Positions 37,101-43,100 of a DNA stretch of 64,000 nucleotides are shown piece after piece (position 1 is the stretch's first letter; each line of letters starts with the position of its first letter). This DNA is from Candidatus Cloacimonadales bacterium (GTDB lineage Bacteria; Cloacimonadota; Cloacimonadia; Cloacimonadales; JAIOQZ01). Location of the stretch: the NCBI GenBank assembly GCA_963662655.2, contig CAXXTU010000002.1, forward strand, positions 960,001-1,024,000, given 5' to 3'. Position numbers: made by a program.

Positions 37101-40100
37101 GCAATCGATCGCTTCCTTGTGGTTCCCGTTCGAGTAGTGTACCATCCCGATGCCACTCAGGCTACTGCTTATACCTTCAGCATGCCCGATCTCCCGGCTA
37201 AGCTCAAGCGCTTCCTGATAGCACAAAATCGCCTTGGGGTAGTCACCCAGCTTGTAGTATAGCTTTCCCAGATTGTTCATTGCGAAACCGCAGCGCTCTT
37301 TGATACCAAGCTCGCATACGAGTTCATAGCCTCGCTGGAAATATTCGAGCGCACGATCGTAATCTTCCAGAGCGTAATAGATTTCACCGATATTCATTAG
37401 CGGGTCTGCCGAAAGACTTGGGTCGTTCAATTCTTCCGCGAGCTGCAAGGCCTTCAACTGATAATCCAGCGCGATATCCTGAAGCCCCCAGTTCTGGTAA
37501 AGCTCGCCCATGTTGATGTAGCAAATCGCGATTCCATCCTTGGCCGATCTCTTCTGCTGGATTTCAAGCGCTTTCTTGTAGTACTCGAATGCAAGATCGT
37601 TCTGCCCGTAATTGGCGTAGTTAACGGCGATATTGTTATAGCAACTCGCGATGCCGTCCAGATAGTCGATTTCCAGCGACAACTGCAAGCTCTGATTGTA
37701 GTAGTCGATTGCCTGAGAGTAGTTACCGGCGATACCATACGATATCCCGATGAAACGGAGGGCGTTACACTCTTCCAACTTATTGCCGTACTGCTTCGAA
37801 AGCGTCAACGCTTTGAAGCCGAATTCTCGGCTCTTGTCCGTTGAGATTTGAGAGTATACCTTACTGATGCGATTGATATAAGGAATCTGGTCAGGCTCCG
37901 ACAAATCCCGCATTTCTTCCATCAGTTTTTCAATTAAATCCATACATCACCGTTCCGGTTTCATGAGGATCTCGATATCTTTGTCCGAAAATCCCTTCAG
38001 ATTTTTAACCATGCCGTAGATTGCATCGTAGATCATGTCTTGCACAAACGGTACCATTACGATGTTTTTACCGTCGATTCTCAGCGATAGTTTCTCGGCC
38101 CTGTCCGTTACGCAATCGTCACGGGCCATCTCGCCGCCCAGTATCTTTCCCACGGCAACGCGGCACGGAAAGCCGCATGCCGTGCAACACGCCTCATCAG
38201 CCATCGGCAATACTCTAAAGACCTTATCGATGACAATATCTGCGATTTCCCTTATATTTTTTTCAGGATGCAGGACGGGAAGTCCTTTGTATGTGTCATA
38301 ATTGTTTGACACCTTTCCCGAAATTGCGACAACCGTGTCGTCCAAGAGTTCATCAATCTGCTCCAGGCTTTCCGCGCACAGAATGCGTGGAAGCGGTTCT
38401 TCCTTCATTCCTTCCACGACGACATACTCCGCGTCCAGCTTCGCGAGCATTTGCTTGAGCGAGAGTTGCCGGTGCCAGATTTGATAGGTCTCCGTCAATC
38501 CTCGCGCAATGATGGTTTCACTACCTGCTTCCCAGTGGCGCCAGGTGTTCGAGCCCACCTTTTCCATGGTGAATTGCTCGTTGTGAATATCCTTGATGGA
38601 CTGCACGGAATGGCCCCGCCGCCTGAGCTCCGCGATGAGATTCTCCGCGACGGTTGTCTTTCCCGTGTGATGGTATCCCGCTATGCTGAGTACTTTCAAA
38701 ACCACCTCCTACGGCAGGATGTTCGGCGCCCACTCGAAGAGCAGGAACTGCAATCTGCCGATCAGTAAAGAGATACGCGCCATCGCCGTGTAGCCGAACG
38801 CCGCGCCGAAGCTGACCATGAGGAAGTAGATACCGACCTTAGCGCCGACGCCGAAGGCACCCTCGTGCTTCTTGCTGAAAAAGAAGTAGATCACTCCGCA
38901 GATGGTCCCGACAACCAGAAGAAGCTGCCCCACGATTTCCACCGCCGATCCGTTGAACGGATTGATCATGGTGGCGGTAATCTGGGAGAGCACATCCGAC
39001 TTCATGTATCGCATGAAAGAGATGCCCGCAGTTGTACCAATCATCAATGCGATAGGATACCTGCTGAGCCATGCGACTTTCGGAACGAGTTGGGTTAACA
39101 TCAGGATGCCGAGGATCCCCGGGACGATCAACAGCCAGTGCGCTCCGAAATCGGCGCTGAGCTTGTTGAACAGGTTGGGAATCAGGATGAAATAGATGGT
39201 GTAAACAAACCAGTATCCCGCGGAGAGCCCCACGAATATCTGCTCTGCGACTTTATAGAATGGATTGTCCTTGTAAAGAAAACTGTAGATGCCAAACGTG
39301 AGGAGAGCGCCGATCCACAATCCAAGCCAATTCATGAAGTGTACCATTATTCCCCCCTTTTCCGCTTGCGAATTAGATGATACTGTATATTTCCGACCGC
39401 GATGAATAGAATGATGATTAAATGGGCGATCGATTGAGCGTCCATACCGCTTGTGGCGATATCGATGTGGCCGCTGAGCTTTTCGTATTCCGCGGCAGCC
39501 TTCAAGCCGCCGAGGAGTCCGTGCAACTGCTTCTGTTCATTGATATAAGGAAGGATCGCGGGAGCGCTGACAGCGGTTGCACCGCCGGTGGTTATCACCT
39601 TGTTCTTGTCATGTGCGACCATCACCCACTCCTTGATGCCGGGCGCGCCGGCGGAGAAGCTGTACACAAACGCGAAGTCCGTCAGGTTGCGAATGCCGTC
39701 CATGATGGGAAGCTCGCCGATGGGCGTTCCGCTCATATCGGCAGGGTAAACGTCCCGGATATCCGATCCCATCTTCTGAATGGTGACGATTCCTCCGGCC
39801 TTGAAGCCGAGGTTAACATAGTCGACACCATCTTCGATCCCGGGCATCTCTTCTTTCAAGCGCTTGAATGTATCCGCGCAAAGACTCGCCCCCATCGGCC
39901 AGAGCGCAGTGCAGACGATCTTGTATTTTCGTTCCAGGGCGTTCCGCGCCACGGCGTACGCCATGGGATGGAGCTCCGGCTTGCTGGCGGGATCGTAATC
40001 GAATGACAGAAGAATGTGGGAGCCTTCCGGTTGGCCGTTGACCAGGTCATACACCATCTGCACATTCTCGGACGACTCGATGGGCAACCCGAGCTTGAAG

Positions 40101-43100
40101 ATCAACGGGAGAGCGACGCCGATCAGGATCAGCGTAAAGAGGGTTCTGCGTGTGTTTTCCGGACTCATCTTCATCATTCACCTCCCAGGTAGGAGCGTTC
40201 GATGCCCAGGATGATCCGCAGGCTGCTTCCGATGATTCCCAGCCCCGCGCATATCATGATCGCTCGCTGACCGGCGGTGTTGGGGTATTTCATGATGAAC
40301 TCGGCCAGGTTGGGCAGGTGCAGGAAGCTGAGCGCGTCGGGGAGCCAGCCGGTCAGGAAGCTTCCCAGGCTCGTGCGTCCCAACATGACCAGAACCGCGG
40401 CGATCAGGAGCAGGTTCGATTCCGTGGTCCTGCCGATGAACGCCCTGTACGCTGCCGAAGCGATAAAGAACGCCAGCAGGGAGAACATCGACGCCGAAAG
40501 GTGCTGGTACACGTTGTTGAACATGTAATCGAACGGCTTGGAGCCTATCGACTGTACCAGGCTTGTGCCTGCGCCGAGGATCCCGGCGTTGTCTTCCGTT
40601 CCCCAGAAGAGTCCGAAGATCACCATGACGGCGAAGCTGACGATCGTGACGATAAAGTATTGCCAGTTCGGCAATTTGTGCTTGATCTTGAGCACATGCA
40701 CCTTGATGAGGTTCATCTGCCCCAAAATAATGGCAAATCCGGCGATGATCATAAACCAGTCTTCCAGACCGCCGGTCAGTGTTCCGAACGGCTTGTGGGG
40801 AATGAACTCGGCTACGATCACGAGGATTCCGACGAAAAAAGCGATAAGTAGTGGTATTCTTCTTTTCATACTTCAATCCATCAATGTGCAATCAGGAAAT
40901 CTTTCAGAAAATGGACGCCGGCGATTTCCAGGATGATGCCGACGGCTAGAACAATCACAAACAGCGCTTTTCCGACGTCCTGCCCCTTCAAGCTCCCCAA
41001 CTGATGCGGATCCTTGGAAAGGTAGGCGGACGCGGCGAAAAGCTCTTCACCGATCAGTGTATAATCACATGCTGCAACAAAGAAAGGCAACTGGCTGGGC
41101 ATCGCGGTTCCAGCGGTCTGGATCGCGCCGCTGGTGAAGCCCGTCTCGGCCAGGATGAGCGATTCCGCGTAAAATGCCCCCATCAGGAAGATGGCTGCGG
41201 GTTTTTCGCGAATGATGATGCCATCGACGCCGGCAACAAAGCCGAACTGGTCGTCCGTGAGATAGAACACGGAATCCGGGAGGTATGAATCCGGCCGCCC
41301 CGCCTTCATGTAGGATTCCTTGACCGTTTCACGGGCGGCGGAAAGTACCATGGAGCGCGACACGGGCACCAGAAGCTTGGTGTCGTACTCTGCGGTGCGT
41401 TGCGCCAGCTTCCCTAGGATGGTCAGGCCGGCGATGGTTTGCATGTCGTCGAGGTCCATGATTCCCGGAACGAAGAGGATCGGTTTGCCCATTTCCGTTG
41501 CGCGACCAACGGCTTCCTCCATCGAGTCGAGTCCGCTGATGCGCCGGATGTAGAGGTCTTTGCCACTACGGGCCGAGGCGATGTAGAAGATGATTGCGCC
41601 CGAGAGGATGATCGCCATGATGAGCAGGGAAATCTTGTCGGTGTTGAACCACTGGGCCTTGGCGATAGCCCTTCCAACCTCCTGAGCGAGCGATTGTCCG
41701 TCCGCATCGAGAATGGATATGCGATAGTCGTAGATCTCCCCCGCCGAGATGTTGTTCGTGTCCAGGAAGCTGTTCTTTCCGGAATCGACCGTGGCGATCA
41801 CCTGGAAATCTTCGTTTCCGGTTTTCCGTTCGATTTGTATGCTGTAGATGTCGGCTCCGGCGTACTCCCATTTTAGATCGATCCCCGAGCCATCGTCATT
41901 GGGATGATCAAAGACCTGGAAGCCGACTCCTGCCGCCCACGCAGAGCATAAACCTAACAGCATAAGCAAGTTAAGCAGCATTTTCATAAATATCTCCAGA
42001 TTTTGGATTATATTTTTTAATTTCAATTCTTGATGAAAATTGTGTCAAGAAAAACAGTTTTTGCATGAAAACGGAAGAGCATTTCTTATGGTCCGGCAGT
42101 CATCTTGTGTCGTTGAGCGAGTGTTTTTTCGTATTCTTCACCACCTTTCATCTTGACACGGAAATCACAGGGATTTTCATGGCGTTGGCTGGCCCCCGTA
42201 GCTCAGGTGGATAGAGCAGTTCCCTCCTAAGGAAAAGGTCGCACGTTCGAGTCGTGCCGGGGGCGCCACTTTTGCATCTACAATAATTGCAGCAACTTGC
42301 TCTTCCCCTCCTGGCGCAGGTAGATACTCCCTACTATCTCTCGCGATAAAGTCCTTGCCATTTTCGCACGATTCTTAGGCTTGGTTCGTGAATCACAGGG
42401 GGTTAGCGCACCATGCTTTATCAGAAGCTCAAACAATACTTCGAACAATCCGGTTTCTTCAAGGAGATCGATCAACGGTTGAGTAACCAATCCACCGGCG
42501 ATCTGCTGTTCAACATGAACAACTCGGCCAAAGCAGCCGTCGTGACGCATATCTTCCAGCAGACGGGCAAGAATATCCTGTTCGTCAGCGCAGACGATAA
42601 AATGGCCGAGGATTACCTGGATGATTTCCAATTGCTGGTCGGGCAGGAAAGCGCCTGCATCCTCCCCGATTTCGAGGTACTTCCCTACGAAGAACGTTCC
42701 CCTCACTACACCATCCGGGCGCAGCGCATCGAGACCCTCGCGAGAGCCGTGTCGGGGCAGCCGCAGATTTACAGCCTGCCCATCCGCTCGCTGCTCCGCA
42801 AGATCGTCCCCCAAGTCCATCTTCTCAGCCAACCTCGTACAGCTTGTCAAGGGAGAGGAACACAACCCGGATCACCTGATATCCAAATTGGTCGGCCTCG
42901 GCTACAGCAACGAGTACCAGGTTTCGCGCGTGGGTGAAGTGGCACGTCGCGGCGGTATCATCGACATCTTCAGTCCGAATCTCATGTATCCGGTGCGCGT
43001 GGAGTATTTCGGCGATGAAATCGACTCGATTCGCGAATTCAGCGTGACGTCCCAGCGATCGCTCGGCTCCGAGCTGGACGAAGTGACCATCATTCCTTCC

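Follow-up and report, generated by a model that had tools for sequence, protein, structure and literature searches.

The diol dehydratase reactivase DdrA/PduG combines an ASKHA ATPase with a swivelling domain and acts on an alpha/beta client domain. In group II ECF transporters one energising unit is common to several membrane modules, and RnfA/E are two six-helix subunits of opposite orientation. To our knowledge, every primary transporter described so far draws its power from an ABC, P-type or rotary ATPase. Here we describe a system of seven or eight parts, widespread in little-studied bacteria, that matches no described system: four membrane subunits (A, B, C and D), an ATPase (G), its partner X, a small helical protein (F) and the small gene E.

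G belongs to the same ASKHA fold family as GlmL/MutL (PF13941, NF040745, TIGR01319) and Or-4 (NF040744), with its ATP motifs intact; however, GlmL and Or-4 have 416-450 aa, whereas G has ~600-630 aa with an extra C-terminal domain, and it travels with X and DUF6754 rather than with glmS/glmE or an aminomutase. G and X would rebuild the DdrA/PduG layout from two chains, although the predicted client here is a membrane protein. As in ECF transporters, one G accompanies several membrane modules, but G is ASKHA-type, with no match to an ABC model, and no sequence or fold match links the system to ECF subunits; both DdrA and ECF subunits are absent among the fold matches listed. X contains a barrel-sandwich like the N-termini of RnfC and NqrA, a similarity confined to X residues 23-119, and B and D are six-helix proteins of opposite predicted orientation; in contrast to Rnf/Nqr, neither B nor D has an invariant Cys, the operon holds no other Rnf/Nqr subunits, and an ATPase replaces the dehydrogenase module. 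Subunit A is a member of Pfam family DUF6754 (PF20539), for which no function is recorded. No described system matching this one was found in the literature searched, which lacked most subscription papers and supplements, and no paper in it names DUF6754, PF13941 or GlmL in Cloacimonadota.

The membrane module and its predicted topology

The four membrane genes lie within the window, a 64,000-nucleotide stretch of a Candidatus Cloacimonadales genome:

Subunit A, 40881..41987, minus strand: 368 aa from ATG; DUF6754 (PF20539)
Subunit B, 40174..40869, minus strand: 231 aa; about six TM helices
Subunit C, 39347..40177, minus strand: 276 aa; TM helix, Rossmann-like alpha/beta domain, TM helix
Subunit D, 38709..39347, minus strand: 212 aa; about six TM helices
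mobB, 37947..38705, minus strand: PF03205; local neighbour, outside the system

The ORF of A extends to a TTG at 42026, and ORFs overlap by 4 nt (B/C) and 1 nt (C/D). We find that A, B, C and D are a fixed module, as the initial annotation had proposed: the four ORFs lie on the minus strand, and in 80 loci centred on C, B is beside C in 74 and D in 75. The same-strand mobB begins 3 nt downstream of D, a position that it takes in just 4 of these loci. Promoter and terminator scans remain at chance level, and an Rfam search of 13 sources at the gathering threshold returns two tRNAs and zero riboswitches.

Subunit A matches DUF6754 with 410 bits (cut-off 27), and B, C and D have zero Pfam matches at E<=1. 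A comprises a signal peptide, an Fn3-like outer domain (its profile matches titin Fn3 domains, E 8e-15), a TM helix, the highly conserved alpha/beta domain DUF6754 and a second TM helix, with many invariant acidic residues and one Cys. Ectodomains on A reach up to ~1000 aa and are missing from marine copies. The topology of A, B and D was assigned from hydropathy and the positive-inside rule, by which DUF6754 is predicted to face the cytoplasm. The N-terminus of B is predicted inside, with TM4-TM6 and a cytoplasmic tail conserved; that of D is predicted outside, with conserved cytoplasmic YKDNP and FSKEH loops and a Gly/Ala-rich TM6 that bears an invariant Arg. C folds as TM-alpha/beta-TM (pLDDT 93), in agreement with the earlier description, and its last TM helix carries invariant Gln/His/Asn; the Rossmann-like domain is predicted on the outer face. 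Insertions map to the predicted outer face, with 200 columns outside versus 1 inside for B, 120 versus 2 for D, and 92 in the outer domain of C versus 6 in the inner domain of A. C-D fusions occur, and a fusion search for long D proteins yields just these and outer-loop insertions.

A and C, and likewise B and D, appear to be oppositely oriented. Homology within either pair would point to an inverted repeat, but it is not significant by BLASTP, hhalign or profile alignment with shuffles (hhalign probability 3.9% and 0.4%; block-shuffle z 1.2 and 0.2, respectively). Profiles of B, C, D and G find nothing usable among PDB sequences, the fold search with C returns generic matches only, and the ESM Atlas gives no usable named cluster. 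A tree of the A domain, built by a quick method with an unresolved backbone, is left out of the argument.

A GlmL-like ATPase and partner genes elsewhere on the contig

The remaining genes lie elsewhere on the same contig (C2):

F, C2:1400779-1401162: small helical gene; outside the window
G, C2:1401163-1403067: PF13941; GlmL-like ASKHA ATPase
X, C2:1403078-1404202: 374-aa barrel-sandwich gene, following G
Fused G-X, C2:3324367-3327588: PF13941
E, C2:794977-795426: small gene
Second module, C2:2104648-2113187: five genes, A(1006)-B-C(449)-D-A(936)

PF13941 matches two genes in the genome, G and the fused G-X, with 426 and 298 bits against a cut-off of 27. These positions bear out three points of the initial annotation, namely two GlmL/MutL ATPases (one with a barrel-sandwich neighbour, one fused), a second copy of the module, and the separation of glmL from the membrane genes in this genome. 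The phosphate-1, phosphate-2 and adenosine motifs of G are intact, and DCGSTTTK, DIGGATTD and GSGG are invariant in 48 sequences. X consists of a swivelling domain, barrel-sandwich domains and a KOW domain, the last of which is missing from the fused G-X. A search of plasmids with X gives zero matches.

Operon structure and co-occurrence

Across many phyla the genes follow the order (E)-F-G-X-A-B-C-D, or one of a few rearrangements of it, in loci labelled Zixibacteria, Nitrospirota, Latescibacterota, Synergistia, Riflebacteria, Elusimicrobiales, Bdellovibrionales and Desulfuromonadaceae. This recurring order confirms the proposal that GlmL, the barrel-sandwich gene and the membrane genes form one operon in other phyla. 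All four membrane genes are found in 25 of 80 X-centred loci; conversely, G or X is found in 37 of 80 C-centred loci and in 21 of the 30 that span at least 15 kb. Where an X locus shows no A, DUF6754 lies elsewhere in the genome (35/35). A system of six components had been suggested; the shared system stands, and the count rises to seven or eight, as F is present in 48 of the 80 X-centred loci, E in 18 of them, and both in this genome. A single G is often paired with more than one A-B-C-D module, and these modules differ on their outer faces; of 29 genomes with one PF13941 match, 15 have 2-6 DUF6754 matches. Two genomes of this family carry the fused G-X immediately upstream of a large A-B-C. 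Other neighbours, in a comparison that includes no background rate, change from lineage to lineage, and housekeeping or envelope genes are frequent among them; they include gcvPB, an SHMT-GcvT fusion, lysine 6-transaminase, tryptophanase, a peptide-binding SBP_bac_5 protein and TonB-dependent receptors.

The system is near-universal in Cloacimonadota, with DUF6754 in 74 and X in 75 of 81 genomes, much as first reported. A survey of aminomutases in relatives, named at the outset as a gap, finds Lys-AminoMut_A in 54 of these 81 genomes, and co-occurrence within the phylum is therefore confounded. It is the sample from Planctomycetota, where the system is patchy and the genomes provide natural controls, that settles the question: among 201 genomes, 54 carry both MutL and DUF6754, 3 MutL only, 2 DUF6754 only and 142 neither, counts in which related genomes are not independent. 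In one genus, six complete genomes of 1.5-1.6 Mb are without A, X and G alike, and the system is absent from the 14 well-known control genomes searched. A few genomes have half of the system, as G and X without A or C (genomes G284 and G069) and as A without G or X (G165 and G168).

The B12-mutase label of G

PMC4682846 terms MutL/GlmL a reactivating chaperone, and the reference that it cites concerns diol dehydratase. That G reactivates a B12 enzyme as labelled, its link to the membrane genes being incidental, is extremely improbable. Such a role would fit the PF13941 score above cut-off, the methylmalonyl-CoA mutase encoded by this genome, the lysine aminomutases of the phylum and the mutase-like genes that two genomes of a single family carry upstream of A. 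Yet GlmE or the lysine/ornithine aminomutase family Lys-AminoMut_A is found in 0 of the 54 Planctomycetota carriers, and 27 of the 54 have no methylmalonyl-CoA mutase, which argues that the G clade is not a B12-mutase helper. Moreover, 21 of 75 X-positive Cloacimonadota are without an aminomutase, three 18-kb aminomutase regions contain no G gene, and short GlmL/Or-4 proteins form a separate tree branch, with X, A and C all missing from the genome of the glmE-adjacent one. With respect to three enzyme families the chaperone role is already largely refuted; outside the carrier survey lie diol dehydratase, ethanolamine ammonia-lyase and class II ribonucleotide reductase.

The initial annotation correctly reported no glutamate mutase or aminomutase here (GlmE, Lys-AminoMut_A and EutB are all without a match in this 98.95% complete genome) and did not mention the methylmalonyl-CoA mutase. 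It was also right that G scores low against GlmL models, reaching 222/475, 201/600 and 161/204 (score/cut-off) for NF040745, NF040744 and TIGR01319; as evidence alone this does not hold. Two short Or-4-like proteins pass TIGR01319 (260 and 278), but the glmE-adjacent GlmL of genome G154 fails all three models (90 bits versus the cut-off of 475), so the NCBIfam test is soft and not diagnostic alone. The central claim, which assigns the barrel-sandwich protein and this clade of GlmL to the DUF6754 module and not to a B12 mutase, is upheld by operon structure, Planctomycetota co-occurrence, the tree and, weakly, a co-fold. This accounts for a common mis-annotation: in these phyla a long 'glutamate mutase L' gene is no evidence of glutamate fermentation or B12 chemistry.

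A putative ATP-driven transporter

Co-folding the cytoplasmic domain of A with G gives 0.37, versus 0.00 for the best of 3 controls and 0.00 when G is replaced, with contact agreement of at least 73% and partner pLDDT of at least 69 for truncated chains and no contacts given. The mark is reached by 116 of 157 solved versus 2 of 215 mismatched complexes, and we read the result as weak evidence that this domain may dock on G. The parts list and the predicted G-A contact make the system directly testable.

The genes almost certainly form one system. Our preferred reading, to which we give somewhat less than an even chance, is a putative ATP-driven transporter, likely an importer whose architecture is new and whose energising unit is shared. 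In its favour are the insertions on the predicted outer face, the pairing of one G with several modules, and neighbours such as gcvPB, lysine 6-transaminase, tryptophanase and SBP_bac_5. A-B-C-D would be an integral complex of ~16 helices, with the conserved domain of A at the cytoplasm and the C domain and variable ectodomains outside, where they may capture cargo. A soluble unit of G, X and the small helical F, with E as an accessory, would dock on A and power the cycle by ATP turnover; a single such unit could serve several paralogous membrane modules, like the shared energising module of ECF transporters. We infer transport, topology and cargo alike, and the cargo, for which amino acids or peptides are the best candidates, is the more doubtful part. 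In its widest form, held more tentatively than transport itself, the proposal is an ancient, widespread class of primary active transporter in which an actin/Hsp70-fold ATPase and its swivelling-domain partner energise exchangeable antiparallel four-subunit modules, with a Rossmann-like domain at each face. Its imports would be amino acids, peptides or a cofactor, for example lipoate for glycine cleavage. An ASKHA-fold ATPase as the motor of a membrane machine would define a new class. Sequence and fold searches find no subunit that resembles a known transporter, and further observations count against this reading: neighbours vary by lineage, the 13 sources searched hold no riboswitch, a few genomes keep only half of the system, the support from the co-fold is weak, some carrier loci are labelled Nitrospira and Brocadia, which are autotrophs, and gcvP is not enriched in Planctomycetota carriers (52/54 versus 192/201 overall).

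Alternative readings

G might instead be the kinase-type activator of a membrane-bound enzyme complex, as in the alpha subunits of hydantoinase, oxoprolinase and acetophenone carboxylase, its nearest other ASKHA branch by weak Pfam matches (Hydantoinase_A, 21 bits versus a cut-off of 22.9), with the membrane module supplying, binding or exporting the substrate, possibly coupled to uptake. PMC5214803 describes such alpha subunits as presumed ATP-dependent kinases. The 59-68% identity of G across phyla and the invariant acidic residues and Cys of A would also suit an enzyme; this reading is unlikely but credible. It is weakened by the recurrent neighbour clusters of the 160 loci inspected, which include membrane partners and no hydantoinase-type beta subunit, and by the G profile, which has no solved relative at E<=1. 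Nor does X suggest a carrier: no His and no Lys is invariant or 90% conserved in 99 or 48 sequences, which removes both the His of phosphohistidine carriers (enzyme I, PPDK, RPH) and the modified Lys of biotinyl/lipoyl carriers. An envelope or export machine, in which the actin-fold ATPase is the motor or scaffold at the inner membrane for secreting, anchoring or assembling surface proteins or polymers, we regard as improbable. The Fn3 domain and large ectodomains of A point that way, as do PMT-type glycosyltransferases inside the operon at two loci, a gene for a WD40-like propeller that separates G from X at one, and TonB receptors, rhomboid and lipid genes adjoining it at others; but these neighbours differ among lineages, marine A has no ectodomain, and Pfam, NCBIfam and PDB searches reveal no secretion-system homology.

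Transmembrane signalling, with variable ectodomains that sense, A relaying to G, and X acting through its KOW and barrel-sandwich domains on transcription or translation, is quite improbable. One G is indeed common to several modules, TetR-like regulators adjoin G-X copies that are fused or second ones, and the best Foldseek match of X is Thermotoga NusG (E 3e-6); however, a TM-score of 0.15 and an rmsd of 19 indicate that this match rests on small common domains, and the fused G-X dispenses with KOW. Twelve extra TM helices with conserved polar residues would exceed the usual need of a sensor, and zero Pfam domains are recorded in 30 long D variants. Very improbable, finally, is that the system works as a gated channel or a primary ion pump, bearing RCK-like domains at both faces and using the ASKHA ATPase as motor or gate. 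In Trk/Ktr/Kef a cytoplasmic RCK sits on the K+ pore subunit. The matches of C to RCK folds are at generic Z, and its predicted side is the outer one.

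The membrane module and its partners in the source genome

Four minus-strand ORFs were recovered at the place where the initial annotation had put a four-gene membrane module, and both the second copy that it described and its two GlmL/MutL genes, one fused to a barrel-sandwich partner, were found elsewhere on the contig (C2 coordinates).

40881-41987 (-): A, ORF, DUF6754
40174-40869 (-): B, ORF, overlaps C
39347-40177 (-): C, ORF, overlaps B and D
38709-39347 (-): D, ORF, overlaps C
C2:2104648-2113187: second module; both of its A genes are very large
C2:1401163-1403067: G (PF13941), long GlmL/MutL-like ATPase gene, followed by the 374-aa X, its swivelling-domain partner
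C2:1400779-1401162: F, small helical gene directly upstream of G
C2:794977-795426: E, two-TM gene
C2:3324367-3327588: G-X fusion (PF13941), aligning to G residues 11-523 and X residues 56-293

A matches DUF6754 in Pfam, no Pfam family was matched by B, C or D, and the names of homologues indicate Cloacimonadota; G and the G-X fusion are the two PF13941 genes of this genome. In the region L004:3822-7585 (C2:3323822-3327588 of source genome G000), the fusion is preceded by a TetR gene; it begins with a zinc-ribbon-like segment and has no KOW domain. Where other genomes hold a second G-X copy, it mostly stands apart from the membrane modules, in some cases beside regulators. Just upstream of A and divergent from it lies a tRNA gene (42192-42265, +), and just downstream of D a co-oriented MobB gene with a C-terminal Cys-rich segment (37947-38705, -), a neighbour also seen in 4 of the 80 C-centred loci.

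Operon composition across genomes

Using HMMs built from fetched X loci, many of them cut short by contig ends, we find G in 56, F in 48, A in 30 and E in 18 of 80 X-centred GTDB loci (the best 80 of at least 561 confirmed candidates), with A-B-C-D together in 25. The 80 C-centred metagenome loci (the best 80 of 589) contain A in 68, B in 74, D in 75, X in 37, F in 33 and G in 32, and among the 30 of these spanning at least 15 kb, G or X is present in 21. The commonest order is (E)-F-G-X-A-B-C-D, with A-B-C-D-E-F-G-X and G-X-F-A-B-C-D as alternatives; in some operons a single G-X is followed by two or three copies of A-B-C-D in tandem, and in two genomes of the source family (G001 and G020) a fused G-X lies directly upstream of a large A-B-C. 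The six components initially proposed are thus too few, as F and E join the list and both occur in the source genome. The ectodomain of A ranges from none to about 1000 aa. A group of D variants (P0393, P0397-P0420) has ~350 aa inserted between TM4 and TM5, in a loop predicted to face outward, with no Pfam domain on record.

Co-occurrence and independence from B12 mutases

From the 50 X loci with no A in view we searched 35 genomes, leaving out 15 Cloacimonadota loci, and DUF6754 is carried by all 35. One PF13941 match was found in 29, none in 3 and several in 3, and 15 of the 29 have 2-6 DUF6754 matches; numbers of matches are not exact copy numbers, and we counted as single one genome in which both matches are fragments of the same gene. 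Across Cloacimonadota, 74 of 81 genomes carry DUF6754 and 75 carry X, and A, X and G are all missing from six complete genomes that belong to a single genus with small genomes; because lysine aminomutase is also present in 54 of the 81, this co-occurrence is confounded, and we therefore turned to Planctomycetota, the phylum of a Brocadia locus (G103), where the system is patchy. Among 201 genomes, PF13941 over cut-off and DUF6754 occur together in 54, MutL alone in 3, DUF6754 alone in 2 and neither in 142 (Fisher P = 1e-42, overstated because related genomes are not independent). Of the MutL-only genomes, G154 has a 416-aa GlmL directly beside glmE, with no X or C; G284 has G and X, with A and C not found; and the match in G310 is a contig-end fragment. 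These counts bear out the proposed tie between membrane module and G/X, and all parts belong to one system, which is real and conserved.

None of the 54 carriers has GlmE or Lys-AminoMut_A over cut-off (found in 2 and 1 of the 201 genomes, respectively), and 27 lack methylmalonyl-CoA mutase; the system is not a B12-mutase helper. In a quick tree of 37 proteins, three short GlmL/Or-4 sequences are set apart from all 34 X-partnered ones (SH-aLRT 99, long branches). The low GlmL-model scores cited earlier do fall below the NCBIfam cut-off, but so does the glmE-adjacent protein of G154. At that locus (L183:2490-11067), glmS-glmE-glmL adjoin apparent carrier-protein and adenylation-enzyme genes, whose sequences suggest a biosynthetic cluster.

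Gene neighbourhood

Ten of the 80 X loci (best 80 of at least 561) contain genes resembling gcvPB, which immediately precede E or F in nine and were confirmed by NCBIfam in six, and an SHMT-GcvT fusion of 1101 aa (L189:14697-17999, -; G162) lies directly upstream of X-A-B-C-D. In one marine lineage D is followed by lysine 6-transaminase and piperideine-6-carboxylate dehydrogenase, in one family tryptophanase precedes A, and other copies are flanked by peptide-binding proteins and TonB receptors. Several results count against an amino-acid or peptide context: many neighbours are housekeeping or envelope genes, no riboswitch was seen in 13 sources, and gcvP is not enriched among carriers. GcvP type is associated with the system in the Planctomycetota sample: it occurs in 2 of 71 genomes with a single-chain GcvP and in 50 of the 121 whose matches are of another type, mostly two-subunit (classes assigned by hand), an association probably confounded by lineage. 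G165 and G168, in which A but neither G nor X was found, encode single-chain GcvP; in G165 a C homologue match (C169:2509-3411, -) contains one in-frame TGA, possibly reflecting module decay or read-through of the match.

Proposed mechanism and alternatives

We infer that the system transports a cargo. Most likely, outer domains would bind it, B and D, together with the anchors of A and C, would form the path, X and F would hold G on the cytoplasmic domain of A, and G would drive the cycle with ATP. In DdrA, an ATPase and a swivelling domain act on a client domain; by analogy, G and X could exert a pull on an alpha/beta client domain or set it free. A co-fold of G 11-511, X 151-373, F 13-95 and A 146-336 (48-row alignments) scored 0.37 versus 0.00 for the best of three controls, one of which replaced G, with contact agreement of at least 73% and partner pLDDT of at least 69. 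In the calibration, which is only roughly valid for these four chains, 116 of 157 solved complexes passed the mark, as did 2 of 215 mismatched ones; only 18 of the solved complexes that passed scored 0.60 or under, a band that holds both passing mismatches. A search with the G profile turned up no solved relative at E<=1. The model hints at a physical link between the G unit and A's domain, already a likely guess on genomic grounds.

An enzyme complex is rather unlikely, and no hydantoinase beta partner was found among the recurrent neighbours inspected in 160 loci. We regard an envelope or export machine as unlikely, and a signalling device as improbable. An ion pump or channel is more improbable still. 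The cofactor residues of Rnf/Nqr are absent. A B12 reactivase is scarcely credible, and the gene context that defines GlmL/Or-4 is lacking. Transport remains our preferred reading, at somewhat less than even odds; the system is neither ABC nor ECF, and may work in the manner of group II ECF. It was not found in the literature searched, and the function given here is a prediction.

Other features of the window

The 730-aa ORF at 33555-35747 (+), divergent from fdhD (32682-33437), appears from its motifs to combine a NifS-like cysteine desulfurase with a selenophosphate-synthetase-like domain in one chain. An mfd-like gene is apparently split near its start, perhaps by a frameshift or an error of assembly, over two frames (42413-42937 and 42621-45824, +).
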